Positions 38,588 to 52,758 of a stretch of DNA of 64,000 bases are shown here, piece after piece. The notes beneath the pieces were generated by a model, which was not told the origin of the DNA, searched no databases, and saw nothing but the letters and a program-made list of their open reading frames with translations. Numbering within the stretch: the first letter of the stretch is position 1; the number at the start of each line of letters is the position of its first letter. A program made the translations under genes and the position numbers. The DNA comes from Candidatus Collierbacteria bacterium RIFOXYD2_FULL_45_13 (GTDB lineage: Bacteria > Patescibacteriota > Microgenomatia > UBA1400 > MFAQ01), in NCBI GenBank assembly GCA_001774685.1, contig MFAS01000001.1, positions 351,557-415,556 of the forward strand. Direction: 5' to 3'.

Positions 38588-38723
38588 AAATCCATTCCTT
38601 TCATATTATTAATTTGTAAACAAACTTACAATTTAAGTATAGCAAAAAATATTATTCCATATACCCCGTGTGAGACACCATACCCCTTCGAATCTTTATA
38701 GTAGATTATTTCCAAATTAGTTA

Positions 38724-39149
38724 TTGATATATACTTTATATCAAGAGATTATGAACAACTCCTACACTTGGTACTCAACACTTATCAAACCTGCCTGGTC
38801 GCCTCCAGGTTGGCTTTTTGGTCCGGTGTGGACTTGTCTTTATATTTTGATCGCTATTTCTTTTGGGAAAGTGTTCTTGATGGGTTGGAAAAAAGAAATT
38901 GCTTTTATTGTTGTTCTACCTTTTATCCTCAATCTTGTTTTTAACCTTGCCTTTACTCCCTTGCAGTTTGGATTAAAGAATAATTTGTTTGCCGCTATCG
39001 ACATTCTTCTTGTCTTGGTCACTCTGGTCTGGTCCCTGGTTGCCATATATCCTCATGCCAAGTGGGTTACCTATATCCAAACTCCATACCTGCTGTGGGT
39101 ATCATTCGCCACAATTTTGCAGTTAACCATTACCTATTTAAATAAATAA
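38724..39149 (+). CDS. tspO: TspO/MBR tryptophan-rich sensory protein
   Basis: PPGWLFGPVWTCLY motif; 5 TM helices; the start may be the ATG at 38751. Confidence 0.7.
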   Translation: MIYTLYQEIMNNSYTWYSTLIKPAWSPPGWLFGPVWTCLYILIAISFGKVFLMGWKKEIAFIVVLPFILNLVFNLAFTPLQFGLKNNLFAAIDILLVLVTLVWSLVAIYPHAKWVTYIQTPYLLWVSFATILQLTITYLNK

Positions 39150-39150
39150 G

Positions 39151-39550
39151 GTGTTCGTCAAGCTCTATCTTATTGCCCTTCCTGTATTTTTGGCAATCGA
39201 TATGATTTGGCTGACTTTAGTTGCCAAGAATTTTTATGCCAAGCAGATCGGATTTTTAATGACAAAGAATCCAAATCTCTTGGCCGCCCTGATTTTTTTA
39301 TCTTATTTTTATTGCCGGATTGATCTTTTTTGTAATCACTCCTGCACTTGATAAAAAGATATGGACTCAAGCACTTCTGGCTGGGGCATTTTTCGGTCTC
39401 GTGACTTACGCCACATATGATCTCACAAATTTGGCCACTGTCAAAGACTGGCCGCTTCTGGTTACCATCATCGACCTTCTCTGGGGTATGACTCTCTCCG
39501 CCACCGTTTCCGCCATCACCTACTTTATCGCCACCAAAATTGGCATCTGA
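39151..39550 (+). pseudogene. DUF2177-family membrane protein interrupted by a +1 frameshift in a T7 homopolymer (~39300-39312)
   Basis: Two adjacent ORFs (39151..39351 and 39320..39550) each match half of DUF2177. Removing one T from the run restores LIFYLIFIAGLIFFVITPAL. Confidence 0.5.
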
Positions 39551-39584
39551 CCTTTTATCCAAAAACGGGCAGGGAATCCTTTTC

Positions 39585-39976
39585 TGTTGTCTGTTATAAC
39601 GAAATTCGAACTTATTTTCGGGACCATTACTAATCTATTGGCTCACCGATCAACACTTCATGTCTCGCGGTTCGCCACCGCCAGCCCTGCCGGTCCGCCT
39701 TTGGCGGAGGCGGAAACCCTTGCGCGCGATTAATAATGTATCCCGACTGCGGTCGGGATAATTGCTCTTTCGAGCAAGCGCCAGCTATCACTGTCGCATC
39801 TTTATGTTCGCCACAACTTCACATCCAGTGATTGTGGCGAAACTGTTCTCAATATATGGCTCGAATTTCAAACTCGCCATAAAATATCAGCTAGTTAGGA
39901 AAAGATTTTACTATCTGATATTCCAGAATTGAGACAGCATTTGGCCTTCAGGCCAAAGTGCCTGCTCCGCAGGCAC
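39585..39976 (+). repeat. repeat family copy 1 (~392 nt, non-coding, several hairpins)
   Basis: Near-identical to 45747..46204 and partly to 50857..50959 (inverted); no ORF. Confidence 0.6.
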
Positions 39977-40027
39977 AATAACTATTTCTGGTTGCTATGA
40001 TACACAGAAAGACATAAAATACAAACA

Positions 40028-40555
40028 ATGGAACAAATAATTTTAGCGAGACACTGTCAGACAGATCTATTAGCCTCTGGTGATAGTAGTACAAGAAGAA
40101 ACGATTCTCCTTTATCAGAGTTGGGATTGAAGCAAGCAGCTCAAGTCAGTAAGTTTGTAAACAAATTCGAATATGATGCAGTTTTTTCAAGTTTGTTTAT
40201 TCGAACGATAAAAACAGCAGAAATAATAAACGAGAACAAAAAACCTCAATTCGCCAATATTAATTTGAGTGAGTATTTTGCCGGTGACGACGGAAAAGGA
40301 AGAGAATCAACAACTATGGGAATAGCTAGAACGATGTCTTTTATTTACCCCATGTTTGATCTATACAAATCAATTGTAATTGTCGGTCACAACGCCATAA
40401 ACTCCACAATTCTTAGGTCTTTTCTTAATATGGAATTTGAGGAGGCTGAAGGCTATTTCAAATCAGTCGGTCAAGTACTGGTACTTAGACGAGATTGGCA
40501 AAAAGGAGATAAGGTTTGGCACATAGAGGACAAATTTACCCCTGACCAAGAATAA
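40028..40555 (+). CDS. histidine phosphatase (phosphoglycerate-mutase-like) family protein
   Basis: N-terminal LARHCQT (RHG) catalytic motif. Confidence 0.55.
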   Translation: MEQIILARHCQTDLLASGDSSTRRNDSPLSELGLKQAAQVSKFVNKFEYDAVFSSLFIRTIKTAEIINENKKPQFANINLSEYFAGDDGKGRESTTMGIARTMSFIYPMFDLYKSIVIVGHNAINSTILRSFLNMEFEEAEGYFKSVGQVLVLRRDWQKGDKVWHIEDKFTPDQE

Positions 40556-40556
40556 T

Positions 40557-41663
40557 TTATTTAATTGTTGAGTTTAATAGAGAGATCACCTCTTTGGCGT
40601 GAGTCTCTATAGAGAATTTATCTCTTCGCTTCTCTGATTCCAGTTCATATATTCTTCTTATCTTAGGGTCGAGTAATTTATCTATGGCCTCCGCAAATAA
40701 TTTTGTATCACCAGTTAGAGTAATAATTCCACCACTTCCTATGTATTCTGGCACCGAAGCTTCATTAAGCCCCAAACAAGCCTTGCCTTCATAAATAAAG
40801 TTTGGAATTGTTCCAGAACCCTGAAATATTTCATCTCCATCTGGTTGTCTATACGGGAATATTCCAAATGCGCTATATGAAGAAAGATATTTATATTCTT
40901 TTGAATTTAAGTATTTATCTACTACATAAATTTCAGCCTTTCCAATTATTTTTTTATCAAAGCCTAACTTTTTATACCAACCTCTTCCCGCAATAACCAA
41001 TCTCATCTTTTTATTTACATAAGTTAGTGAATTTACTAGGAATTCATGATCTTTGTAATTAGCAGGGAATCCAGGCAAATACACTGTTGGTACGCTTTCA
41101 GAATGGTTAAATGTATTTTTGAATTCTCGGATTTCGCTTTCTGATAATATTTCATGAGAATGGGTTTCGGGAAGAAAAGAAACCACCCCCGATAAAGAAT
41201 TACCGGATTGTTTTTCCATATACTTTCTAGCAAATGTTCCAAAAAATAAGTAGGACTTGAAAAATTCACATACTGCCTTTTCCACTTCTTTCTGAGTTTT
41301 ATCATCTTTGAGATATTGAGAAAATAAGTTCCTGCTTAGAAAATGGGTAAAATATATTGGATTATTTATTTTCTTTCCGATATTTGATAACACAACAGGT
41401 AGGTACTGTTCAATATCATTCTTTCCATAATGAAAAATAACTGAGTCATATTTATCAAAATCAATTCTTGAGGCGATTTTAGAAACGATCTCTTTGACTC
41501 TATCTGATGAAAGCCACTCCCTCTTTGCTACATCAAAAGCCGACTCTTCTTTTGTCGATCCATCAATATCAACTAAAATATTATGTTCGCGCAGTATCTC
41601 AGATAGTCTATTTACATAAACATCAATGCCACCGCTCGATGGGGAAATCATTAATATTTTCAT
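40557..41663 (-). CDS. putative glycosyltransferase (GT-B, GT4-like)
   Basis: KILMISPSSGG N-terminus; C-terminal EASVPEYIGSGGIITL motif; position inside a GT cluster. Confidence 0.4.
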   Translation of the reverse strand: MKILMISPSSGGIDVYVNRLSEILREHNILVDIDGSTKEESAFDVAKREWLSSDRVKEIVSKIASRIDFDKYDSVIFHYGKNDIEQYLPVVLSNIGKKINNPIYFTHFLSRNLFSQYLKDDKTQKEVEKAVCEFFKSYLFFGTFARKYMEKQSGNSLSGVVSFLPETHSHEILSESEIREFKNTFNHSESVPTVYLPGFPANYKDHEFLVNSLTYVNKKMRLVIAGRGWYKKLGFDKKIIGKAEIYVVDKYLNSKEYKYLSSYSAFGIFPYRQPDGDEIFQGSGTIPNFIYEGKACLGLNEASVPEYIGSGGIITLTGDTKLFAEAIDKLLDPKIRRIYELESEKRRDKFSIETHAKEVISLLNSTIK

Positions 41664-42739
41664 TTTAGAAGTTCTTCATATACCTTTAAGCTTTCATCAA
41701 TCATATGCTCCCTATGAAATTCCGCATTGAGCCTATCATAATTCACTTTATATTTAGACAATTCCTTTATTTTCCTTAGGATGTTTTCAACATTACTTGG
41801 GTCTACATACTCAATCGCTTCATTTGGTTGAAACTCTTTATATACCTGACAATCTTCGTTTACTAACGCAGGCAAGCCAAGTGCTAGTGCTTCAGCTAAT
41901 GCTAATCCAAAACCCTCGACTCTAGAGGTTGACAAAAAGACATCGCAGTTCTTCCAGATATTAACTTGATCTTGTCTCGCTAGGTTGTTAAGGATTACGA
42001 CATTTTCTTTTTTTAGATCATCTCGCAATACCTCTTCAATTGAATTTCCAATATTCAGAATCCAATTTATATCATTTGGAGATTCAGCAATTAGTACCTT
42101 TAATAGGTCAAAGCCCTTCATTAGGGTAGTTTTTCCACACCAAAAAACATTGATTTTGTCTCGAGCAATACATTCAGGTATGCGTACTGATTCTGGAATA
42201 ATTAAAGTATTCGTATCAATGCTGTTGTGGATTACACGGACGTCCTTGAGGCCGTATTTTTTCATAATATCTTTTTTGGCAAACTCACTAACGGCTAAAA
42301 CCATATCGGCATTTAGACACAGTTCTTTTTCCAGTTGAGCCAAATTATCCAAGTCGATCCCGAAAAGGGTTGTGGCGCTCGGATCAGATCTCACCACCAC
42401 CCTTGCGAACCTACTTTGGCGTTTTGAGTAGTCTAGTAGTTCAAATTTCCAGTTAGAGCACTCTACAATGTCAGGTTTGAACTTCTCAACCACCTCCGAA
42501 ACCATTTCTGAATACAAAATAGGGTCTTTGGTAGTTGGAAGGGTAACTATGTTGATCCCAGGCATGGAAAACTCCCTCTGGGTAATACAGCTTACTCTCC
42601 ACCCGCTACTCGTCAAACCAGCCATAATAGCCTTGAAAAGCACGCAAACTCCTCCTCGGTCAATGTCCCCAATGTCCTTGTGTACGAAGCAAATTGATTT
42701 CATATGGTTTAGTAGTATAATTATATAGGATGAAAACAA
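41660..42739 (-). CDS. glycosyltransferase family 4
   Basis: EGFGLALAEALALGLPAL motif. Confidence 0.75.
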   Translation of the reverse strand: MFSSYIIILLNHMKSICFVHKDIGDIDRGGVCVLFKAIMAGLTSSGWRVSCITQREFSMPGINIVTLPTTKDPILYSEMVSEVVEKFKPDIVECSNWKFELLDYSKRQSRFARVVVRSDPSATTLFGIDLDNLAQLEKELCLNADMVLAVSEFAKKDIMKKYGLKDVRVIHNSIDTNTLIIPESVRIPECIARDKINVFWCGKTTLMKGFDLLKVLIAESPNDINWILNIGNSIEEVLRDDLKKENVVILNNLARQDQVNIWKNCDVFLSTSRVEGFGLALAEALALGLPALVNEDCQVYKEFQPNEAIEYVDPSNVENILRKIKELSKYKVNYDRLNAEFHREHMIDESLKVYEELLK

Positions 42740-43779
42740 AGCTGTCCATGCCTGAATTCACGTTTCTTCTTATCAGTAGAAACGCCTCAAATACTATTCT
42801 AAAGACTATCCAGTCAATTAGAAAGCTGTCTCGTGGCAAGAATATCGAAATTATACTGGTGGATGATCATTCGGAGGATGCCACTGTTTCTATGGCCAAA
42901 CCACTCTGCGACAAGGTTTTGGTAAACAAAGCTAGAATGGGGATTGGCTTTTCTAGGCAAAAAGGGTTAGCCTTGGCATCAGCCAATAGAGTGTTTATCA
43001 TCGATTCCGACATTGAAATAACATCAATAAATTTTAAGAAACTGGATCAGTTATTTTCTGAAGGCATTGTGGCTATTTCAGGTAGTTATAATTCCAACGA
43101 CAATCAGTCAAACTGGAATAAAGCTCTTGATCTGAGAAGAAAATATATTTATTTCAAGGATAAGAGGGTGTCCATAGCGGACAAGAGCCGATATGTAACT
43201 TTTTCAGGAGGATTTTGTGTCATTGATATAGAGAAGATTGGTGGAATAAAATATTTTGGAAAGAAAGACACTTCGGCAGAAGATGTTTTATTTCAGCTAA
43301 AGCTATTACATCGTGGCCTAAAGACTGCTTATTCACCGGCATTGGTGGGTATTCACCACCACCATCGAAACACCAGAAGTTTTTTCCAAAAAGTTATGGC
43401 CGATTCCGTCGCCTATCCATGGTTGATGTCCTTATGTCTAAAAAATAAAATAAGTATGCCAGTTTTGGAACAAGCCTTCAATTTTCCAATTTTTCTGATC
43501 ACCTCATTTTTTATACCTAATCTTCAAATAAAATTACTATTGCTAATACTAGAGTTTTTCCCACAGATATACATATTATTCACAGAAAGATTCAGTCCTA
43601 ATTCCATAAGATTGCTTATTTATGCCATTGCTCAATCTTTAATAAAGGTATTAGCCTGCGCTAAAGATTTAATTTTTGGTAAATATAGTTCGTCAGACAG
43701 GATTCTATATATAAAAAATCTATTAACCTCTGATTTTATTTCAAAAACTAACTGGTTTAAGCAGACATTTATCCAATAA
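42730..43779 (+). CDS. glycosyltransferase family 2 with C-terminal TM region
   Basis: FLLISRNASNTILKTIQS...ILVDDHSED GT2 motifs. Confidence 0.7.
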   Translation: MKTKLSMPEFTFLLISRNASNTILKTIQSIRKLSRGKNIEIILVDDHSEDATVSMAKPLCDKVLVNKARMGIGFSRQKGLALASANRVFIIDSDIEITSINFKKLDQLFSEGIVAISGSYNSNDNQSNWNKALDLRRKYIYFKDKRVSIADKSRYVTFSGGFCVIDIEKIGGIKYFGKKDTSAEDVLFQLKLLHRGLKTAYSPALVGIHHHHRNTRSFFQKVMADSVAYPWLMSLCLKNKISMPVLEQAFNFPIFLITSFFIPNLQIKLLLLILEFFPQIYILFTERFSPNSIRLLIYAIAQSLIKVLACAKDLIFGKYSSSDRILYIKNLLTSDFISKTNWFKQTFIQ

Positions 43780-43785
43780 AAAAAT

Positions 43786-44913
43786 ATGGAATTTGAAGTA
43801 AACAAGGAAATAAACCAGTGTAACCCGTACGAAAGATCTGTGGGCGGGTCATTGTTTCGAATCTATGCCACCGAAGCGCAGATTAAATACGTAGACAGAG
43901 TCTTAGAAGGTTCGATAGATGAGTTCAGGGACAGTACCCAAGAGGCTATTGAAGTCGTTTGTACAGACAACACTGAGCTTTCAGAAGATATATTAAGCAA
44001 ATCATCTCTACAAGAAAACTCATCAGCTCTAATCGCCGGAGAGATTGAAGGTGGTAAATTTGTCAGTCTAAAAGGTGTATTCATGGATATTCTAATGTCA
44101 AAAACCGACAATACCCCGTTAACTCATATTTCAATAAGCCAAAATCCTGAATACGGAGCAATTACCTTTATTAAGTCGTATTTGTTAAATAAATATGTAA
44201 ACCAGCAGGAGGCTCTGGTGTTTCACGCAGGGTCGATGACATCATTAGACAATTCATCAAGCTTCGTAATATCTGCCTTAAGTCATCACATTAACAACGG
44301 TGATAACTCAGGAAAAACAACCGCCATATTAGCAAGTTGTGCTAGAGAAAACGCCAACTTCGCATATTCGTCAAACGATGAAGTTATTTTATCTATTTTA
44401 GATAACGCCACTGAGGTTAAAGCGCTTCCGTTTCCAAGTCAGATCACGATAAGGGGAAAATCATTAGAAACGTTAAAGACTGATGGAGTAAATTTCAATC
44501 TCGAAGATTGGAATGGTGTTGATAGTATTACTGGTCAATCTGTAAGTGTGGTCACTCCAAGAGGGGTGATTGAAGCGGGATATCAGGTCTTACCCGTGAA
44601 TCCATCCAGATTAGATTGGTGCTTCATAGAAATTGACCCAAACTTGGCTGATTATTCTTGTGTAGAAGCAGATCCGCAAGCATCAAGACAGCTTTTTTGG
44701 GGTGCAGTTTCAAAAAGAAGAATGAATCAAGCCTTAAACCCATTGTTTTTAGGAGAAACAAGTAACACCCAAGCTTATGATCCAATTACATGTCAGCCAA
44801 AGGTGGATGAAATATTCAATCGTTTGGTCTTATCCGGTACAAAATTTTACATTCTTCGAGGAGGAGCAGACAGGGATAAATTAAACGCAATCTTTACTAA
44901 GTTAAAGCGATAA
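43786..44913 (+). CDS. hypothetical protein with P-loop-like GDNSGKTT (HPr-kinase-C-like?)
   Basis: FHAGSMTS...GDNSGKTTAILA; no firm family. Confidence 0.3.
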   Translation: MEFEVNKEINQCNPYERSVGGSLFRIYATEAQIKYVDRVLEGSIDEFRDSTQEAIEVVCTDNTELSEDILSKSSLQENSSALIAGEIEGGKFVSLKGVFMDILMSKTDNTPLTHISISQNPEYGAITFIKSYLLNKYVNQQEALVFHAGSMTSLDNSSSFVISALSHHINNGDNSGKTTAILASCARENANFAYSSNDEVILSILDNATEVKALPFPSQITIRGKSLETLKTDGVNFNLEDWNGVDSITGQSVSVVTPRGVIEAGYQVLPVNPSRLDWCFIEIDPNLADYSCVEADPQASRQLFWGAVSKRRMNQALNPLFLGETSNTQAYDPITCQPKVDEIFNRLVLSGTKFYILRGGADRDKLNAIFTKLKR

Positions 44914-44916
44914 AAG

Positions 44917-45708
44917 ATGAAATACAAAGCTTTATTGCTCGATATTGATGGCGTCTTGCTTAACAAGGAGGATGATACGGATCAGAAAACTTGGGAAGCA
45001 ATAAATGATCTCATCGCCCGTGGTATTCAGGTATCCTTTGTAACTTCGCGCCCATACGGACTAGCGTCACATCTTGTCAAAAAGATATCTGACCACGGTA
45101 TCCATGTATTTGAAAATGGAAACTTTATTTATGAACCAAAAGACAAAAAGGTTCATAAAGCTGAGTACTTAGAAACACAGCTCTCCGGAGAAGTTATTCA
45201 GATGGTAAAACCTCATGAAGGAAATATAAAAATAGGGTACTCGTTGGGAGACAAGTTTATGGTTAATGAAAACTACTTCGATAATTTGAAGTCATATATG
45301 CCGGTAAACGACTACTCAAAAATAGATGAATATTGTGAATATAACTACGTTTCAATTTGGCTCAAAGATATTCCAAGTTATTTCGGCAAAAAAATTATTG
45401 AGATTGTAAAAAACAATGCCCGTATTAATATCTATCATCAAAACGAACTTCTTGATTCGGTATTTATCCACCCAGAATCAGGCAATAAATTGGAGGGGGT
45501 AAAAGAGTTATCAAAATTAACGGGAAGATCTCTAGAGTCCTCGGTCTTTATCGGAAATGATTCGGATGATATCTGCTTGGCTCGTGAGGTCGGACTTTCG
45601 GCGACTCCAGCAAATGGCATTGATGAACTCAAGAAAGTTTCAGTTATTGTCTCAAGCTATGAGTATTCACTTTCAATAAGCGATATCATACAAAAAGTGT
45701 GGGGATAA
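44917..45708 (+). CDS. HAD-superfamily hydrolase, subfamily IIB (Cof-like sugar phosphatase)
   Basis: LLDIDGVLL (DxD) motif I; GNDSDD motif IV. Confidence 0.7.
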   Translation: MKYKALLLDIDGVLLNKEDDTDQKTWEAINDLIARGIQVSFVTSRPYGLASHLVKKISDHGIHVFENGNFIYEPKDKKVHKAEYLETQLSGEVIQMVKPHEGNIKIGYSLGDKFMVNENYFDNLKSYMPVNDYSKIDEYCEYNYVSIWLKDIPSYFGKKIIEIVKNNARINIYHQNELLDSVFIHPESGNKLEGVKELSKLTGRSLESSVFIGNDSDDICLAREVGLSATPANGIDELKKVSVIVSSYEYSLSISDIIQKVWG

Positions 45709-45746
45709 ACTATCCGCGCGGGCGACATATCCGACTGATGCCGGAA

Positions 45747-46204
45747 AATCTCAATCTGTTGTCTGTTATAACGAAATTCGAACTTATTTTCGGGACCATT
45801 ACTAATCTATTGGCTCACCGATCAACACTTCGTGTCTCGCGGTTCGCCACCGCCTGCCCTGCCGGTCCGCCTTTGGCGGAGGCGGAACCACTTGCGCGCG
45901 ATTAATAATGTATCCCGACCTCATCATCATTGCGAGGTTCGGTGCTCCGAGCCGTGGCAATCTCACACCATTCTGATTCGGTCGTGATGGTTGCTCTTGC
46001 GAGCAAGCGCCAGCGTTCGCTGTCGCATCTTTATGTTCGTCCCAACTTCGCATTCAGCGATTGGGACGAAACAGTCTCAATATATGCTCAAATTAGCAAT
46101 TTCGCCATAAAATATCAGCTAGTTAGGAGAATATTTTACTAGCTGATATTTAGGACTTGAGACAGCATTTGGCCTGTCGGCCAAAGTGCCTGCTTCGCAG
46201 GCAC
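45747..46204 (+). repeat. repeat family copy 2 (~458 nt; ~60-nt insertion relative to copy 1)
   Basis: Alignment to copy 1 by eye, with compensatory substitutions in two stems. Confidence 0.6.
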
Positions 46205-46220
46205 AAAATATTTTGAGTAA

Positions 46221-46250
46221 TTGACAGTAATGTATACGTTGTCATACAAT
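46221..46250 (+). promoter_or_regulatory. sigma70-like promoter TTGACA-N18-TACAAT overlapping direct ATGTATAC repeats (probable RHH operator); near-leaderless start at 46259
   Basis: ttgacagtaatgtatacgttgtcatacaatgtatacatATG. Confidence 0.4.
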
Positions 46251-46258
46251 GTATACAT

Positions 46259-46657
46259 ATGACAACCAACAAAGTTCTCAACGCCAGAGTTTCAGACAAG
46301 CTATACGAAAAAATATCTGATAAAGCTAAGAAAAATAGAACTACTGTTTCTAACTTAATCAGAAACTTAGTCGAAGATGCATTGGAGATCCACGAAGATT
46401 TTCATGAAGCCGTAGACAAGAAAATCAGGAAATATCTTTCAGAAACTGAAAAACAAGACATTTTGGGATACCAGGAGATGGTACTTGTTAAAGATACTGA
46501 ATGCGACAACTGTGGTATGTTACTCAAAGTATCAGAAACAGCATATTTTGCCTTTTTCGAAGACAGGGATGTTAAGGCTATTCTCTGTGCCACCTGTAAA
46601 AACGAAAGTTTACAACCGGAGAAAACAAAAGCGCATGAGAATACTTCAAATAAGTAA
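46259..46657 (+). CDS. ribbon-helix-helix (CopG/Arc-like) DNA-binding protein with C-terminal CxxC...CxxC zinc ribbon
   Basis: N-terminal VSDKLYEKISDKAKKNRTTVSNLIRNLVEDAL RHH pattern. Confidence 0.45.
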   Translation: MTTNKVLNARVSDKLYEKISDKAKKNRTTVSNLIRNLVEDALEIHEDFHEAVDKKIRKYLSETEKQDILGYQEMVLVKDTECDNCGMLLKVSETAYFAFFEDRDVKAILCATCKNESLQPEKTKAHENTSNK

Positions 46658-48008
46658 GGAGTTACTTGCCCTAAGTATCCAAACTAAGCCTTGGGATAAA
46701 GATGGGTTTGCCTCTAAAACAAATGCTATCTTGATTCGAAAGTCCCTAGAGAGATTGGGTTCTGTATTTGTGAAGTTGGGGCAGATGTTGGCATTGCGGC
46801 CAGATTTTATCCCTGTCATTTTTTGCAATGAGCTATACAAACTACTAGATCAAGTTCCCCCTTTCGAGTCAAAACTTGCACTAGACATCCTTCGACATGA
46901 GCTCGGAAATAATAAATTCTCAAAACTTCTAGAACTCAATCCCAATCCTGTTGCCTCAGCTTCCTTTGCACAAGTTCATAAAGCAAAATTGGCTAATGGT
47001 GATGTTGTGGCTGTCAAAATTCAAAGACCAAATGTTGAACTGGTGATTCACGGAGATTTAGCAATTATGAGGTTCATGTCAAAATTATTTGATTTTTGGT
47101 TCCACCCAGCAAATAAGTTAATAAACATCGTGGAAGAGTTTGAAGCCTGGACAAAAGATGAGCTTGATTATTCACTAGAGGCCAGCAATATAGAAAAGTT
47201 TAATGACACTGCCGAGCTTGTGGGAGATGGTATTCGTGGTCCAAATGTATACAGGGAACTAAGTACATCTAAGGTGATAACAATGGAATTCATTGATGGT
47301 TACAGCTTAACCAAAATAATTACCCTTTTGCAAGAAGGAAATAAGAAACAAGTTCGAGAGCTTGGTTTTGATGGTAAAGATATTGTCGATAAATTAATCA
47401 AAAATATGTTGGAAATGTCCCATGTTCATGGTTTCTTCCATGCGGACCCTCACCCAGCCAATATTATTTTCACCCTAGAAAAAGAACTGGTATTAATTGA
47501 TTTTGGCATAGTGGGCAATCTTTCAAGAAAAGAAAGAACCCTAATGCTAAGGTACTTCCGAACACTAATGGCAGGCAATGCTAAGGATTCGTTTGATTCG
47601 TTACTTGAACTTTGTGGTAATAAACAACCAGAAAATTTAGACCAAGTCAAAGAACGATATTCTACTTTGATTGATAAGTTTGCGGCAACATTCAGTTCAA
47701 AAACTTACTTGGAGCAACAAATAAAGTCTGGCCCCATTCTAGCCGAAACACTTAGTCTTATGCAAGGTAATGGTATGAAAGTTCCAGTTAGCATTGTCAG
47801 ATACTTCAAGGCATTCGAAACAGTCGAGGGTCTGATTTTTGCACTTTACCCAAAACTACAAATCCAAGATATGCTCAAAGAATTTAGGCGGGTATCAATA
47901 ATAAATATCGTCGATTCCATCCCCACAAAATTTGATTCGGTAAACATTGATTCCTTAATGCTCAAGATTATCGATTCTGTGGAAAAAAGTTTGTTACTTG
48001 ACGACTAG
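46635..48008 (+). CDS. ABC1/UbiB-family atypical protein kinase
   Basis: FVKLGQMLALRPDFIP motif; kinase catalytic motifs. The track ORF (46485) is trimmed to Met51, which overlaps the upstream gene by 23 nt. Confidence 0.7.
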   Translation: MRILQISKELLALSIQTKPWDKDGFASKTNAILIRKSLERLGSVFVKLGQMLALRPDFIPVIFCNELYKLLDQVPPFESKLALDILRHELGNNKFSKLLELNPNPVASASFAQVHKAKLANGDVVAVKIQRPNVELVIHGDLAIMRFMSKLFDFWFHPANKLINIVEEFEAWTKDELDYSLEASNIEKFNDTAELVGDGIRGPNVYRELSTSKVITMEFIDGYSLTKIITLLQEGNKKQVRELGFDGKDIVDKLIKNMLEMSHVHGFFHADPHPANIIFTLEKELVLIDFGIVGNLSRKERTLMLRYFRTLMAGNAKDSFDSLLELCGNKQPENLDQVKERYSTLIDKFAATFSSKTYLEQQIKSGPILAETLSLMQGNGMKVPVSIVRYFKAFETVEGLIFALYPKLQIQDMLKEFRRVSIINIVDSIPTKFDSVNIDSLMLKIIDSVEKSLLLDD

Positions 48009-48047
48009 GAAGACTAGCGGAACAACGTTAAGGGTTACAATAAAAGT

Positions 48048-48344
48048 ATGAGCAAAGCATTTCGACTACTTTTTATTACAATACTAATATTTTCAGCATA
48101 TCATCTGATCCGTGATTTACTCACAAATTTTGGAATTCATAACTATATTGTAGATTTTGCACATCGTCCTCACTTGTGGTGTGGAAAATTTTATCCTTGG
48201 GTTTGTCATTGGATTACAGTTCCTCCTGAGATTTTTACGTTAATAGTGTCAATAATCGTATTAAAGCGAAACAGGGTAGGAGTACTTGGGTTTTTAGTTT
48301 TATTACAAGTACCACTGTGGTTATTATTAGTCTTGTTACCTTAG
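48048..48344 (+). CDS. small 3-TM membrane protein
   Basis: ORF track; hydropathy. Confidence 0.3.
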   Translation: MSKAFRLLFITILIFSAYHLIRDLLTNFGIHNYIVDFAHRPHLWCGKFYPWVCHWITVPPEIFTLIVSIIVLKRNRVGVLGFLVLLQVPLWLLLVLLP

Positions 48345-48350
48345 CAAATA

Positions 48351-48917
48351 ATGTTTCGCTCACTTTTCCAAAAAATTGTAAGACAAAGATCTGAAGTTGT
48401 TATTAGTCGCATCTTTCCATTTCTCAAAGACTCAAAAAAGATTTTAGATATTGGTTCTGGGACGGGTGATGTAGCATTTCTGCTAGGGGAACATGGAAAA
48501 GACGTAACGCCTGTTGATGTTAGCGATTTTCATGGTCCTAGACTTGTAAAAACCACGATCTACGACGGACGAAAACTACCATTTCCGAATAACTCATTTG
48601 ATACTGCCATGCTGCTTATGGTTATGCACCACACCCCTAACCCAGAAATTGTCTTTGATGAAGCATCGAGGGTAGCCAAAGAATTAGTAATTATTGAAAC
48701 TTCATACACGACTCCGATAAACAGATGGTTTACTATAGTCTCTGATGCTCTAGGAAATCTTCGCCTTGAAGCCTTTTGGTCATCATATAAATCTGATTCT
48801 GAGTGGAAGGAACTTTTTGCAAAAAAGAAATTCGAAATAGTTAAAACTCAAAAATATAACGACAGAAATTTTGGTCTCCCATTTCTACACATCGCCTATT
48901 ATTTACGACGAAAATAG
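48351..48917 (+). CDS. class I SAM-dependent methyltransferase
   Basis: ILDIGSGTGDV motif I. Confidence 0.65.
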   Translation: MFRSLFQKIVRQRSEVVISRIFPFLKDSKKILDIGSGTGDVAFLLGEHGKDVTPVDVSDFHGPRLVKTTIYDGRKLPFPNNSFDTAMLLMVMHHTPNPEIVFDEASRVAKELVIIETSYTTPINRWFTIVSDALGNLRLEAFWSSYKSDSEWKELFAKKKFEIVKTQKYNDRNFGLPFLHIAYYLRRK

Positions 48918-49555
48918 TTTTTAACCCACTTCCTCCCAAACTTAATCCATCCAAAATATATTGTGCCAGACGCATAAGCAAAAATCCAACTGATAGCAGT
49001 GAATGATACAGCATCGGTAACTTTAAGAGATATTAGGTACCAAATTATCGTGGCGGGTATCATGCCCAAAGTCGATACCATAAAATATTGAGAGAATTTG
49101 AGATTAGTCAGTCCAAAAGCATAAGAAATTACATCGTGAAATTCCTTCATAAATAATCGAAATACAAAGAGAGTTTGTAATCCATAGTCTTTTGTCAGTC
49201 CGTCTAGCTTTTCTAAGGCGTCCAAACCAGCCACTTTTTCTACTACCTTTCTACCCCAAATCCTTCCTATCCAAAAGTTTGTTATCGAGGCAATCACGGC
49301 AGCGATAAAGGCATAGACCACAGACATTTGTCCGTATAGATAAAATCCAGCGAACAGAAACGGTGAACCACTTAAGGGGGCAGCCACATTTGTTATCCAT
49401 AAGCAGAAAATAAGTAGCACAACACCCCACGGTCCAGCACTTGCCATAGTTGTTCTTATTGTCGTTTCCGGTATCATCGTGCCAATCAAAATCATGATTA
49501 AAAAAGTGAGAACGATCAGAAATATGGGCAAATAGTTTCTTTTGTGAATCTTCAT
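48899..49555 (-). CDS. DedA/TVP38-family membrane protein
   Basis: PLSGSPFLFAGFYLYG motif; multi-TM. Confidence 0.65.
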   Translation of the reverse strand: MKIHKRNYLPIFLIVLTFLIMILIGTMIPETTIRTTMASAGPWGVVLLIFCLWITNVAAPLSGSPFLFAGFYLYGQMSVVYAFIAAVIASITNFWIGRIWGRKVVEKVAGLDALEKLDGLTKDYGLQTLFVFRLFMKEFHDVISYAFGLTNLKFSQYFMVSTLGMIPATIIWYLISLKVTDAVSFTAISWIFAYASGTIYFGWIKFGRKWVKNYFRRK

Positions 49556-49617
49556 GCGATTGGTAAATTATACCCCGCCGATTCTAACTGTTTTGATCAT
49601 TCTCGATCCGTCAATCA

Positions 49618-49642
49618 GCCAAAGTGCCTGCTTCGCAAGCAC
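49618..49642. repeat. solo copy of the repeat-family terminal hairpin (GCCAAAGTGCCTGC-TTCG-CAAGCAC)
   Basis: Matches the 3' end of repeat copies 1 and 2. Confidence 0.4.
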
Positions 49643-49651
49643 GCCTAAATC

Positions 49652-50689
49652 TTATTTGATTGGAGTAAGAGGTAATTGACTGGAAATATATGAAGCAATT
49701 ACTTGCTGGGCAATGGGTTCTACTCTTCGGCCAACCCACGATGCTGCTTTTCCTATATTTCCAAGTAATAACTTAATTTTTTCAATATCATGCGGTTTCT
49801 TGATTTCATCTTGTAACGCACCAAGATTTTTCATTATTTCTTCTTTATTCTCTGGATTTTTCTCGTCAATTTCCTTACGAATACTATCAAAACTTGTGTC
49901 AATATCAGCATTTATGTTTACTGGACTATTGTTTCCAGTAGTTATGTTGATATTGTGTCCATATCTTACTTTTTTAATCATTTCCTTTTTATCATTGCTT
50001 TTAAGACTAATTCCTGTGAGAAATTGTACTCCCTCTGGTTTTATCTTGATACTAATATATGATCCTGTTGAGTCTCTCAATATTTCAATAAAATTATTAA
50101 ACTCTAGAATTTCTAAATTTGAATCTATAGTATTTTTATCAAAGGGAAAGATAGATCTCATAAGGTCAATATGTAAATTCGTGGAATAACTATCTTTTCT
50201 GTGCATATATAGCGGTTCCAATATCGCCTTTGCCATAAGTTCATCGGTCATATGGTCGCCGAACATTTTGATCTGAAATGTTTTTTCCATCGAATCATGG
50301 ACTTTGATATTGTGAATTCTAGAATCTTGCTGACGTCCATCCTCGAGGTCTCGAATAAACCTAAATATGAAACTTTCACTTTGACTTGTAAGGACATCTT
50401 TATCAAATGGAAGGTAGTGTAGTAAGTTCACTAATGCTTCTTCAAGAAATGGTTCTTGGGGAAACTTTTTACTTTTTGGGTCTGCCCACAAATAATCTAA
50501 GAGCATAGACTGTTGGAAGCATATCTTCCCAACAAGCTCCTTATCATTTTCATCATATATTCTAAAAGCGGCAATCCATACTAAAAAATTTCCGTTTACC
50601 TGATTGTTTCTTCCCGTGAGATTTACTGCGTGCGCCGTGTATATGCCACTCCCATTCCTAAATTTTATTTTTTTGAATTCGTCATCCAT
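49652..50689 (-). CDS. hypothetical protein (345 aa), island cargo next to the recombinase
   Basis: AT-rich ORF; no recognisable family. Confidence 0.4.
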   Translation of the reverse strand: MDDEFKKIKFRNGSGIYTAHAVNLTGRNNQVNGNFLVWIAAFRIYDENDKELVGKICFQQSMLLDYLWADPKSKKFPQEPFLEEALVNLLHYLPFDKDVLTSQSESFIFRFIRDLEDGRQQDSRIHNIKVHDSMEKTFQIKMFGDHMTDELMAKAILEPLYMHRKDSYSTNLHIDLMRSIFPFDKNTIDSNLEILEFNNFIEILRDSTGSYISIKIKPEGVQFLTGISLKSNDKKEMIKKVRYGHNINITTGNNSPVNINADIDTSFDSIRKEIDEKNPENKEEIMKNLGALQDEIKKPHDIEKIKLLLGNIGKAASWVGRRVEPIAQQVIASYISSQLPLTPIK

Positions 50690-50856
50690 AATTTACAGCA
50701 ATTCTATATCTTTCAGTATCATAAGTATATGCGTTGTTGATATTTTCAATATAATTTAGTTAATAAAAATCCCGAGCTCGAACACTATAGGAAAAAACCA
50801 ATTTTTGCGTTTTCTGTCATGGCTACTGCGGTAGCCATCGTTCGAACCGATGTTAC

Positions 50857-50959
50857 GGCAGGCGGTGGCGAACCGCGAGACACGAAAGTGTTGAGCGGTG
50901 AGCCAATAGATTAGTAATGGTCCCGAAAATAAGTTCGAATTTCGTTATAACAGACAACA
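50857..50959 (-). repeat. repeat family copy 3 (partial, inverted; first ~100 nt of the core)
   Basis: Reverse complement aligns to the 5' part of copies 1 and 2, then diverges into a unique hairpin ATGGCTAC-TGCG-GTAGCCAT (50824-50843). Confidence 0.5.
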
Positions 50960-50989
50960 CTTCGGGATAAATCGGGAGAGTCGGGGTAA

Positions 50990-51022
50990 GTCGCCCGCGC
51001 GCCCGCCCACGCGCGGAGCGAC
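50990..51022. repeat. 33-bp GC-rich palindromic hairpin, left inverted repeat flanking the recombinase gene
   Basis: GTCGCCCGCGCGCCCGCCCACGCGCGGAGCGAC; the reverse complement recurs at 52563-52596 with 1 mismatch. Confidence 0.55.
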
Positions 51023-51130
51023 GCTCAGTTCTTTAATAATCTGTATCTTTCAAAAAGCGACAGAAAACGCAAAAATAAATTCGGTAAAACTTCTGCGGAA
51101 GTTTTGGGTCTTTTATGGTTAAATGAATGT

Positions 51131-52726
51131 ATGACCAAGTACATTGCGTACTGTCGGAAATCAACAGACGAGAAAGATCGACAAGTTTTGTCGATCGAAG
51201 CCCAGATTGCCGAGCTAAAAGAATTCGCCAAGAGGGAGAAGCTTCACATTGTCGAAATTTTAGTTGAAAGTAAAACCGCCAAAGAGCCGGGGAGGCTTGT
51301 CTTTCAACAAATGATAAAGCTTCTCCAGTCCGGCCAAGCCAACGCCATTCTTTCATGGCACCCAGATAGACTAGCCAGAAATAGTGTCGACGGAGGTCAG
51401 ATAATATATCTCGTCGACACAGGTGTAATTACAGATTTGAAGTTTCCCTCGTTCTGGTTTGAGAACACCCCTCAAGGCAAGTTTATGCTAAACATTGCCT
51501 TTGGCCAGTCTAAATACTATGTCGATAACCTCTCTGAGAATGTTAAGCGCGGTAATCGCCAAAAATTAAGGAATGGCGTTTGGCCGAACAAAGCTCCTCT
51601 TGGCTACAAAAATATTGTCGAGAACAAATCAATTGACATCGATCCGGAAGAAGCCAAAGTCGTCAGAAAAGCTTTTGAAATGTTTGCTGATGAAAAATAC
51701 TCTTTCATTCACATTGCTCGCTTCATGGCACAAGGGGGAATAACAAGCGCCCTCGGGAAGCCTTTGAAGATTGACCAAATCAAAAGTATGCTCCAGAAAA
51801 AATTCTACATCGGCACGATGGAATTTAATGGCGAAGAGTTCAAGGCTTCCCATCCAACTTTCATCAGCAAACAACTTTTTGAAAGAGTCCAAAGTAACAT
51901 TCAAAAGTTTTCTAGACCAAGGGAAACCAGTCACGACTTTGCTTTTTCCGGTTTGATGCGGTGTGGGGAGTGCGGCGCTACCATCACGGCTGAGCAACAC
52001 ATCAAGCACTACAAAAGAACCAATCGCACAGTCAAATATATTTACTATCGCTGTACAAAGAAAATAAAGGCCTGTTCTCAGCCGTATCTGGAAGAAAACA
52101 ATCTCTTTGATCAACTGAAGAGTGAGATTGGCCCCTCCGCCCTCCCCAAATCTTGGCAACGTGAGTGGAAAACTCGATTGGCACAGGATAAAGTCCTAGC
52201 GGATGAGTCCAAAGAAAAAGTTCTCGCCCTGCTTCATACCCAAACCGAAAGTTTTGATACCAAACTAAATACTCTTCTCGATGGATATCTGGACGGCACA
52301 GTTGACTCCGACATCTACAAAACCAAAAAGAGTCAGCTGTTCCAAGAAAAGCTCAAACTTGAGAGCCAGATATCCAAAACAGAAGAAGAAGGTTGTAGTT
52401 GGCTCGAACCTTTTTCTAAGTTTGTAAATAGCGCCATACTGGCGCAAAAAATCGCGCGCAAGGGTTCCGTGGACTCAGAACTGCGGTTCTTCGTCCAAAA
52501 CATCGGTTCGAACTTCTTTTTGAAAGATAAACAGATTATGGTGGAATGGGAAAAGCCCTTCGCATCGCTCCGCGCGTGGGCGGGCGCGCGGGCGACTACC
52601 CCGAAAACGGGCGGGGAATCCCAGAGTGTTGCCGGACTAGGATTCGAACCTAGAATATTCGCCTCCAGAGGGCGACGTCCTACCATTAGACGACTCGGCA
52701 ATACGAGCTCTATTTTACCTCATTAG
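51131..52726 (+). CDS. large serine recombinase (integrase/resolvase type)
   Basis: N-terminal catalytic YCRKSTDEKDRQVLSIEAQ motif, recombinase domain, Cys4 zinc-ribbon CGECG...YRCTKK, coiled-coil region. The ORF has no stop until 52726, so the C-terminus runs through the right IR and antisense tRNA-Gln and the true end is uncertain. Confidence 0.75.
   Translation: MTKYIAYCRKSTDEKDRQVLSIEAQIAELKEFAKREKLHIVEILVESKTAKEPGRLVFQQMIKLLQSGQANAILSWHPDRLARNSVDGGQIIYLVDTGVITDLKFPSFWFENTPQGKFMLNIAFGQSKYYVDNLSENVKRGNRQKLRNGVWPNKAPLGYKNIVENKSIDIDPEEAKVVRKAFEMFADEKYSFIHIARFMAQGGITSALGKPLKIDQIKSMLQKKFYIGTMEFNGEEFKASHPTFISKQLFERVQSNIQKFSRPRETSHDFAFSGLMRCGECGATITAEQHIKHYKRTNRTVKYIYYRCTKKIKACSQPYLEENNLFDQLKSEIGPSALPKSWQREWKTRLAQDKVLADESKEKVLALLHTQTESFDTKLNTLLDGYLDGTVDSDIYKTKKSQLFQEKLKLESQISKTEEEGCSWLEPFSKFVNSAILAQKIARKGSVDSELRFFVQNIGSNFFLKDKQIMVEWEKPFASLRAWAGARATTPKTGGESQSVAGLGFEPRIFASRGRRPTIRRLGNTSSILPH
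52563..52596. repeat. 33-bp GC-rich palindromic hairpin, right inverted repeat
   Basis: Reverse complement of the 50990-51022 sequence (1 mismatch). Confidence 0.55.
52629..52700 (-). tRNA. tRNA-Gln (anticodon CUG)
   Basis: Cloverleaf folded by hand. Acceptor arm 6/7 bp with a U1:A72 pair. D-loop AAUGGUA. Anticodon stem UCGCC/GGCGA with loop CUCUGGA. T-arm CUAGG-UUCGAAU-CCUAG. CCA is not encoded. Confidence 0.7.
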
Positions 52727-52732
52727 ACATAA

Positions 52733-52758
52733 CAAAAGGCCGGATTACTCCGGCCAGA
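52733..52758 (-). terminator. terminator hairpin GGCCGGA-GTAAT-TCCGGCC + TTTTGTT for the minus-strand gene ending at 52762
   Basis: Seen directly in the sequence. Confidence 0.4.

Follow-up and report, generated by a model that had tools for sequence, protein, structure and literature searches.

The 64,000-nt window analyzed here, i.e. the whole stretch of DNA examined, belongs to Candidatus Collierbacteria bacterium RIFOXYD2_FULL_45_13 (contig MFAS01000001.1, positions 351,557 to 415,556). It contains a repeat of ~400 nt with three occurrences (39585-39976, 45757-46204 and, restricted to the first ~102 nt and inverted, 50857-50959; copies 1 to 3 in the following), a gene for a large serine recombinase (LSR) and the gene of tRNA-Gln(CUG). 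The four junctions in front of the repeat copies and of the tRNA are very probably attachment-site joints of a family of 2.5-10 kb islands, which the LSR inserted at the 3′-end of a tRNA gene, in this case tRNA-Gln(CUG). At least two islands, probably three, are stacked against the tRNA between ~38660 and 52627. Such serial insertion is an ordinary kind of genome change. The anatomy of the islands, their homologies and their distribution across the family were read directly from the window and from the comparison sequences, which are metagenome-assembled genomes throughout.

The recombinase gene and its putative target tRNA

The two genes at the right end of the island region are:

52628-52700, minus strand: tRNA-Gln(CUG), the putative integration target (ARAGORN; Rfam tRNA model, 56 bits).
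51131-52726, plus strand: open reading frame (ORF) of the LSR, 531 codons (Pfam, ORF listing, tails in homologues).

tRNA-Gln(CUG) is the only tRNA of the window identified by ARAGORN and Rfam. The LSR gene adjoins its 3′-end on the plus strand. The Pfam domains Resolvase (4e-20), Recombinase (2e-16) and Zn_ribbon_recom (1.5e-9) were detected in the LSR, which corresponds to the three-domain integrase architecture (resolvase catalytic, recombinase and zinc-ribbon domains in one protein of ~450-550 residues). No close relative with a solved structure was found, and structure matches were limited to the catalytic domain (E = 1e-7).

The ORF has no stop codon ahead of the tRNA. Its last 32 codons are antisense tRNA and its end lies inside the tRNA. 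The same read-through into the antisense tRNA was observed in all 30 translated LSR homologues (47-94% identity), whose tails GFEPR, GIEPP and DSNQ are translated T-arm. Homologues of the LSR (47-97% identity) are widespread in Patescibacteria and were also found in a few other phyla. Many of the assemblies with this LSR and the Patescibacteria-specific repeat element (L003, L006, L007, L011, L013, L015, L101-L120 and others) are labelled 'uncultured Pseudomonadales', 'Gammaproteobacteria' or similar; such non-Patescibacteria labels are probably mislabelled bins.

Shared register of the four junctions

The sequences that precede TGTTG at three of the junctions are as follows; the fourth, in front of copy 3, is part of the inverted unit described below.

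52516-52631, plus strand: recombinase-proximal arm X, consisting of the LSR coding 3′-end with a GC hairpin (~52564-52597), spacer allele A (52598-52626) and the core TGTTG (52627-52631) (inverted repeat; junction alignments).
45714-45756, plus strand: putative island-to-island joint with a collapsed GC hairpin (45714-45726; 3′ part 12/13) and 30-nt spacer allele C (45727-45756; 26/30 to the inverted unit of L022).
39555-39584, plus strand: spacer remnant, allele A, of a recombinase-proximal arm whose hairpin and LSR gene would have been deleted (20/30 to the tRNA side; 25/30 to the inverted-unit spacer of L026).

The junctions of copy 1, copy 2, copy 3 (in its own orientation) and the tRNA side were anchored on TGTTG and compared without gaps. 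The distance between the hairpin end (GCGAC) and TGTTG was exactly 30 nt in front of copy 2, copy 3 and the tRNA, and 12-13 of 13 positions of the hairpin 3′ half match among these three. For the six pairs of spacers, 12, 13, 14, 15, 15 and 20 identities out of 30 were counted, compared to a background of 7.5-8.0 (sd ~3.3) for the 30 nt preceding the other ~120 TGTTG sites of the window. The shuffle P values range between <2e-5 (copy 1 vs tRNA side, 20/30) and 0.05 (copy 1 vs copy 3, 12/30), and five of the six pairs are significant. The match between copy 1 and the tRNA flank was recovered independently by the repeat search (19/21).

The junction strings quoted in the original prediction were all found at the positions given there, and the similarity it had described is better than that of shuffled controls in the comparison of the four junctions. 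It had further placed a module of hairpin, spacer and TGTTG in front of every repeat and the 3′ half of the hairpin in front of copy 2. The common register was confirmed, but copy 1 keeps the spacer alone, and the module present at copy 2 has an internally collapsed hairpin (TCCGCGCG+GGCGAC) and not a simple 3′ half.

Every spacer of the window is closer to one in another genome (25-27/30) than to those within the window (12-20/30). The closest relatives were found in L026 for copy 1 (25/30), in L022 for copy 2 (26/30, with the full hairpin there), in L114 for copy 3 (26/30) and in L031 for the tRNA side (27/30). Since the closer relatives sit in other genomes, the spacers are alleles from different lineages and not the stages of decay for which the junctions had been taken. 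Divergence among the junctions therefore does not date the insertions, and the proposed dating of the copies by this measure would mislead.

Arm X and the crossover core

The GC hairpin in front of the tRNA encodes the conserved LSR C-terminus PFASLRAWAGARA and variants of it, and protein similarity continues through the hairpin region in 30 homologues. Because this similarity crosses the hairpin and the ORF then enters the antisense tRNA, the hairpin is the 3′-end of the LSR coding sequence and not tRNA flank. The module thus does not represent a duplicated 3′ flank of the tRNA as first described; where relatives keep the native flank at the far island end, it is unrelated to the module and often contains a terminator.

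In UBA2277, the ~85 nt that end with TGTTG are the same in front of the tRNA and in front of the inverted repeat fragment, and the two sequences diverge directly past TGTTG (TGTTG-CC-GGACTAGG vs TGTTG-TC-TGTTATAACG). The homology among the junctions stops precisely behind TGTTG(Y)C. In a sister lineage of the LSR (~60% identity), which is located at tRNA-Glu, the core is GTGA and the element starts with GTGA-GG-TGTTATAACG. Since the core changes with the target tRNA (TGTTG at Gln, GTGA at Glu), the crossover can be placed at this core of 4-5 nt. In tRNA-Gln, the core covers positions 71-73 and the next two bases (CA), so that the tRNA stays intact.

In another Collierbacteria genome, the 3′-end of a tRNA-Gln(UUG) gene (L010:5438-5562) is adjoined by half a hairpin and a spacer, which points to the second tRNA-Gln isoacceptor as a further target. 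A full element copy lies 700 nt from this tRNA, and no recombinase is present.

Half-sites of attP and attB type

Apart from the core, the start of the repeat and the end of the tRNA share only a TCGAAC box. In the window, the box is located at 52644-52649 (tRNA T-loop, plus coordinates), 12 nt after the core, and in copy 1 at 39606-39611, 16 nt after the core. It therefore lies 4 bp further out in the element than in the tRNA, and 4-5 bp across the family. The 12-nt offset applies to 38 of 46 loci on the tRNA side. For the element, the match to the box begins 15-16 nt after the core in 29 of 31 loci, with TCGAAC itself then at 16-17 nt.

For serine integrases, the motif bound by DBD2 has been described to lie 4-5 bp farther away from the middle in attP than in attB (PMC12191101). 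Because the observed offsets match this rule, the start of the repeat is assigned as an attP-type half-site (P′) and the T-loop region of the tRNA as an attB-type half-site (B′), both partners carrying the same DBD2 (zinc-ribbon) box. The sites do not form an imperfect inverted repeat of two half-sites, as no TCGAAC was seen by eye in arm X or in the native flank (B).

The repeat itself is not derived from the tRNA. MAFFT did align its start to the antisense tRNA, but with a score no better than that of dinucleotide shuffles; when the first 76 nt were aligned globally to the antisense tRNA, z was 0.17 against shuffles, and a tRNA model search of copy 1 had no match at E ≤ 10. A palindromic attP with the LSR cassette at its center was rejected as well, the two cores being reverse complements of a non-palindromic sequence. 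A promoter candidate within P′ (TTCGAA-17-TACTAAT) failed the scan criteria.

Probable stacked islands and their boundaries in relatives

From the tRNA outwards, the region is divided into the following units:

45757-52627: island 2, the youngest and complete, with the LSR kept (copy 2, cargo, inverted unit and LSR).
39585-45756: island 1 (copy 1 and six cargo genes), ending in the collapsed hairpin and spacer at 45714-45756.
38660-39554: probable oldest accreted segment, with a TspO-like gene (38724-39149) and a membrane-protein gene (39151-39550).

The successive insertions beside tRNA-Gln suggested in the original prediction are borne out. The GC content falls from ~45% to 35-40% between 40 and 51 kb of the window, and chromosomal synteny with L121 and L122 stops at ~38650-38660. 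Tandem units that begin with the core and the repeat start at 39585 and 45757, with the recombinase arm progressively lost and different spacer alleles. An LSR beside an intact tRNA, a core repeated at the far boundary, foreign composition and a break in synteny are thus found together, as in islands at tRNA genes. Since synteny ends at ~38660 and both relatives carry island material from there on, 38660-39584, which ends in the spacer remnant of a recombinase arm (39555-39584), is probably what is left of a still older island, its genes presumably being island cargo.

The six cargo genes of island 1 code for a histidine phosphatase, two GT1/GT4-type glycosyltransferases, a GT2 glycosyltransferase, an unknown protein and a HAD hydrolase (Pfam). 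Island 2 contains genes for a ribbon-helix-helix protein and an ABC1 kinase, besides several further genes outside the Pfam scan. No replication or transfer genes are conserved among the islands.

The core of the repeat was found in Candidatus Collierbacteria and related Microgenomates assemblies, with several copies per genome. In 32 of the 39 family loci whose upstream sequence is long enough, P′ occurs a second time in direct orientation, 2.5-10.6 kb upstream of the tRNA junction; this copy is at least 70 nt long in most loci and mostly 100% identical to the inverted copy. The block conserved between genomes corresponds to ~50781-52754 of the window, and the cargo varies.

In relatives, the element copy furthest from the LSR is joined at the core to unrelated sequence (L001/L020, L006/L021, L010, L106, L109 and L113). 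This flank often contains a bidirectional terminator, a feature to be expected if it is native and lies beside a convergent tRNA. Joints of a truncated genuine LSR 3′-end, spacer, core and full element were identified in three cases (L113, L110 and L016); these are putative remains between two stacked islands after loss of the inner LSR gene.

Inverted arms and the inverted unit upstream of the recombinase

The LSR gene is bracketed by a 51-nt inverted repeat (50984-51034 and 52552-52602), each arm of which is itself a GC hairpin. Such an inverted repeat, as it is known from the termini of serine-transposase insertion sequences (IS) or transposons, surrounds the LSR gene in 55 of the 57 assessable family members from several phyla and is longer than 40 nt in 52 of them. 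The arms typically measure 80-127 nt and are mostly 97-100% identical. One arm reaches from the ORF end up to the core; the second is located 40-100 nt upstream of the start codon and continues outwards into core and P′.

Copy 3 is part of an inverted unit (S2), which is composed as follows (parts 1 to 9 in its own orientation):

50801-51076, minus strand: inverted unit S2 ('copy 3'; repeat search; conserved in L020-L024 and L026, same permutation in L025).
51059-51076, minus strand: part 1, 18-nt arm.
51044-51057, minus strand: part 2, start of the LSR 3′ arm, from the equivalent of 52516.
50989-51021, minus strand: part 3, GC hairpin.
50960-50989, minus strand: part 4, spacer allele B.
50955-50959, minus strand: part 5, core TGTTG.
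50857-50959, minus strand: part 6, element nucleotides 1-102.
50840-50854, minus strand: part 7, 15 nt of LSR coding sequence (AACATCGGTTCGAAC), identical to 52499-52513, encoding NIGSN and containing TCGAAC.
50819-50838, minus strand: part 8, hairpin.
50801-50818, minus strand: part 9, second 18-nt arm.

As the 15-nt piece sits directly before the arm in the LSR gene, S2 is a circular permutation of an attP joint. The Shapirobacteria locus L025 (LSR 58% identical) has the same permutation with the same AAAACGCAAAAAT arms. Copy 3 had been counted among the insertion events; this view was abandoned, since the unit is a conserved module upstream of nearly every LSR of the family.

The NIGSN motif is always encoded with TCGAAC, in the window (52499-52513) and in the homologues, and shares this box with the tRNA T-loop and P′. 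The motif is located in the gene, immediately inwards of the inverted arm, and the breakpoint of the permuted unit follows 2 nt behind the motif.

The LSR cassette was always found between an element fragment and a tRNA, and one site with fused arms and no LSR was detected. At this site (L039:11330-11600), two inverted P′ copies flank a palindrome of ~95 nt, which looks like two LSR arms fused without the gene, and an LSR gene truncated at residue 451 adjoins the palindrome.

The inverted unit may serve the LSR as a binding site in autoregulation or as a partner site in inversion, or it may be a relic of element formation. Binding by the LSR, for autoregulation or inversion, would be our guess at low confidence.

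Proposed mechanism and alternative explanations

In the proposed mechanism, arm X, i.e. the last ~65 nt of the LSR coding sequence plus the stretch up to the crossover, would be one arm of attP, and P′ with the element the other. The core TGTTG would be common to the island and the last bases of the tRNA. Integration would result in the order native flank, core-P′-element, cargo, inverted unit, LSR-X-core and tRNA. The LSR would have been retained in the youngest island, the collapsed hairpin with the spacer in the next and the spacer alone in the oldest. The junctions before copies 1 and 2 would represent X-core-P′ joints between neighboring islands; the one in front of copy 3 would belong to a conserved copy of the attP joint, inverted as well as circularly permuted, which lies between the cargo and the LSR gene in nearly all members of the family. 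We infer that the LSR catalyzes the insertion events and that the tandem joints are the product of accretion and a later loss of LSR genes by deletion.

That the similarities between the junctions are chance matches in GC-rich low-complexity sequence is extremely improbable. The weakest pair (copy 1 vs copy 3) by itself reaches no more than P = 0.05, but the register is identical, the other five pairs are significant, and chance is excluded by the recurrence of the hairpin-spacer module before the repeat or tRNA-Gln in dozens of loci from other genomes. It is also very unlikely that the chromosomal sequence 3′ of tRNA-Gln was duplicated at each insertion to give the repeats and the modules upstream of them as paralogs, which then decayed with age. 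A module that recurs in one register before every copy, in a region resembling serial insertions, would fit such duplications, but not the coding nature of the hairpin, the unrelated native flanks in relatives, a repeat that is not tRNA-like, and spacers that are closer to those of other genomes.

Two further explanations are based on the inverted sequences around the LSR gene. The mobile unit could be an IS-like LSR cassette of 1.7 kb with ~100-nt terminal inverted repeats, which inserts at sites with a T-loop-like TCGAAC box. Its targets would be the repeat start and the tRNA end alike, and the repeats would be a multicopy sequence of the host or the islands that draws in the cassette. This would account for the arms around 55 of 57 LSR genes in several phyla, for the TCGAAC in both outside flanks and for the fused arms without an LSR gene between the inverted P′ copies of L039. 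It is nevertheless quite unlikely, since before insertion an inverted element would have to abut the tRNA end directly, and no such site was seen. Simple exchange by a serine recombinase requires two shared bases, whereas the cores at the two cassette ends (CAACA and TGTTG) are reverse complements with no common dinucleotide on one strand. Furthermore, one and the same element forms the left flank in all cases, cut ~100 nt in and followed by a conserved block, and this flank never resembles an interrupted host gene. The far-end joints of native flank with core and element fit the insertion of whole islands. Alternatively, the inverted sites could constitute a DNA-inversion switch by which the LSR flips its own gene, the cargo or both; the reused junctions would be the sites of this switch, with the gene flipped between the inverted unit and the tRNA joint and the cargo between the two P′ copies. 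The cargo lies between perfect inverted P′ copies and the LSR gene between perfect inverted X arms, a geometry like that of invertible segments that hold their own recombinase, with identical inner and differing outer half-sites. This switch is unlikely as the explanation of the junctions: inversion leaves junctions unchanged and therefore does not account for the far-end joints or for copies 1 and 2 in direct tandem order, and half-sites need ~25 nt and not 100. In addition, the 3′-end of the LSR gene faces the tRNA at every locus examined, although the collection and orientation of the loci could hide the other state.

Several points weigh against insertion of islands by the LSR, which we nevertheless prefer. 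No empty attB, with the native flank joined directly to tRNA-Gln, was found for this lineage; a search for empty sites via the left-flank protein returned two relatives only, both occupied by islands. No junction of an excised circle with a complete LSR was found either, the joints seen having truncated LSR genes. To our knowledge, canonical LSRs recombine attP with attB only, and for this reason the X-core-P′ joints need an extra step, for which multimer integration or homologous recombination between related islands is a candidate. The attP would be asymmetric because of the absence of TCGAAC from arm X, and neither the near-perfect identity of the inverted arms nor the permuted inverted unit is predicted by the insertion of islands. 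Finally, repeats can be mis-assembled in metagenome-assembled genomes.

The structured element

The two long copies of the repeat were analyzed as a structured element:

39585-39976, minus strand (folded strand): structured element copy 1, with the core (39585-39589) and P′ at its start in plus coordinates (repeat search, 26-copy alignment, covariation, loops).
45757-46204, minus strand: structured element copy 2, with the core at 45757-45761 and a 57-nt extra hairpin compared to copy 1.

An alignment of 26 distinct full-length copies (367-538 nt) shows clear covariation, with single-stranded stretches that are conserved and inserted hairpins that vary. In total, 27 base pairs with 129 cells changed on both sides were counted, a level reached by none of 500 shuffles. 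Slid controls gave at most 14 pairs and 27 cells, whereas 94.6% of the cells are paired in the real alignment. The compensatory changes beyond the controls identify the element as a structured non-coding nucleic acid.

On the minus strand, 95 of 105 apical loops are of the type G..A closed by C-G, i.e. C(GNA)G triloops or C(GNRA/GNNA)G tetraloops, whereas none of the 105 fits on the opposite strand. Because only the loops of this strand fit, the fold is assigned to the minus strand of the window. It runs the same way as the tRNA gene, and the core marks its 3′-end. GCGAAGC occurs in the terminal hairpin of 17 of the 26 copies, and the element thus contains strand-specific hairpins of the GCGNAGC / GCGNNAGC type found in single-strand initiation (ssi) signals. 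The strand was not discriminated by the folding energies of the whole alignment (-200 vs -213) or by overall G:U counts. A fold of the opposite strand, based on supposed UUCG tetraloops, was rejected, as these loops actually have 3 nt.

In the covarying helices, 17 G:T and 19 A:C cells were counted, with one doubtful extension left out. As the two numbers are about equal, wobble pairs are not enriched. The element may act as RNA or as single-stranded DNA (ssDNA), and the pair statistics lean towards DNA.

For the element, no match at gathering score was found in the window with Rfam 15. For copy 1, nothing meaningful was detected at E ≤ 10 (two chance snoRNA models, E ~7), and the elements of L009, L104 and L109 had no match at E ≤ 1. 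A conserved promoter was not seen beside copy 1, beside the inverted unit or, by eye, beside copy 2. An origin from phages was rejected, as the motifs of the element are absent from IMG/VR and two 17-mer matches were unrelated sequence. Literature searches on recombinase-associated RNA, or on such elements in the CPR (Patescibacteria), returned nothing specific.

A shorter version of the element, comprising the core-proximal half only, is present in Shapirobacteria. An insertion of ~110 nt (TATAA..CATAACGAAGTTATGAGCGA..GACGAGCAAGCTCTTAT) was found at three different places in element copies (L104:7321-7858, L113:1818-2281 and L017:~1040-1140); it has no Rfam match in L104 and looks like a tiny mobile insertion. 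The longest covarying hairpin, helix Hi (39880-39925), has an apical loop that is conserved as TTAGGAGAA.ATTTTA in all copies. This loop is Shine-Dalgarno-like on the plus strand and anti-Shine-Dalgarno-like (UUCUCCUAA) on the folded strand.

Comparison with known systems and possible functions

Tandem accretion beside a tRNA-like gene has been documented for the ssrA islands of Dehalococcoides (McMurdie et al., 2011; PMC3146451). In common with these are a serine recombinase of ~540 residues, insertion at the 3′-end of a tRNA-like gene, tandem islands of which some have no integration genes, and a short repeat of the target end with adjoining conserved sequence. The Dehalococcoides islands have a 20-bp repeat of the ssrA end and an integration module of six genes, whereas here the core measures 4-5 nt and the LSR is the sole conserved gene. 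The ORF running into the tRNA, the inverted arms of ~100 nt and a folded element of 370-540 nt per island also distinguish the family described here.

Serial accretion at tRNA genes is documented as well for the tycheposons of Prochlorococcus (Hackl et al., 10.1101/2020.12.28.424599). They are likewise small cargo islands at tRNA genes, in which newcomers push older islands inward and degenerate remnants or partial sites are scattered. A minority has large serine recombinases and most have tyrosine integrases, which leave partial tRNA copies of ~40 nt. Neither inverted arms around the integrase gene nor a conserved structured element were found among the passages searched.

With the phage-type integrases of phiC31, Bxb1, LI and SPbeta (SprA), the LSR has in common the three-domain protein, a short crossover core and the same box in both partners, 4-5 bp further out on the attP side (PMC12191101). 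In contrast to these, the target is a tRNA end, the box is present on one arm per site, and the integrated island itself retains an intact attP-like joint in inverted orientation.

As a DNA mini-hairpin motif, loops of the GCGNAGC / GCGNNAGC type are found where the single-stranded DNA of phages and plasmids is primed (PMC13037366). The strand-specific hairpin cluster with C(GNA)G and C(GNNA)G loops is shared with ssi signals such as the complementary-strand origins of G4 and St-1 and ssiA of RSF1010 (PMC13037366). The ssi signals have 40-300 nt and belong to replicons with known single-stranded stages, whereas the element described here is larger and may just as well be an RNA with GNRA loops.

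Loops of the GNRA type are a typical RNA feature as well. The folded element could be a single-strand initiation signal by which an island acquired as ssDNA is made double-stranded. It could alternatively be an RNA that controls expression or directionality of the LSR in place of a protein directionality factor.

In literature searches, no description was found of an ORF ending in a tRNA, perfect inverted arms, a permuted attP copy or a large folded element of this kind. It is conceivable, though tentative, that this LSR lineage, which is frequent in Patescibacteria and also occurs in a few other phyla, defines an undescribed minimal type of integrative element, characterized by an ORF ending in the tRNA, inverted arms of ~100 nt, a permuted inverted attP copy and a folded element of 370-540 nt as a working part. 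Current models of serine integrases do not account for the perfect arms, the permuted copy or the folded element.

The genomes of Patescibacteria (CPR) are tiny, and few mobile elements have been recognized in them. If the proposed mechanism is true, a recombinase-only island that stacks variable cargo at tRNA genes, here glycosyltransferases, a HAD hydrolase and an ABC1 kinase, would be a main route of gene gain for this group. The family also supplies dozens of natural attP/attB pairs that combine a T-loop box with a short, target-dependent core, and its readable half-site logic would be useful for understanding and choosing serine integrases.

Further features of the islands

Within island 2, an isolated fragment of the element was detected by repeat search and BLAST:

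49615-49642, minus strand: last 28 nt (plus coordinates) of the element (repeat search, 93%; BLAST).

The fragment sits between two minus-strand genes and suggests a further eroded island boundary.

The membrane-protein gene in front of copy 1 is split over two frames (39151-39351 and 39320-39550), which may be due to a frameshift or a sequencing error.

At 46205-46258, a strong promoter-like sequence (TTGACA-17-TACAAT), read by eye, overlaps an inverted repeat (GTTGTCATA..TATGACAAC). This inverted repeat lies directly upstream of the ribbon-helix-helix gene (46259-46657) and is probably the operator of the encoded protein.

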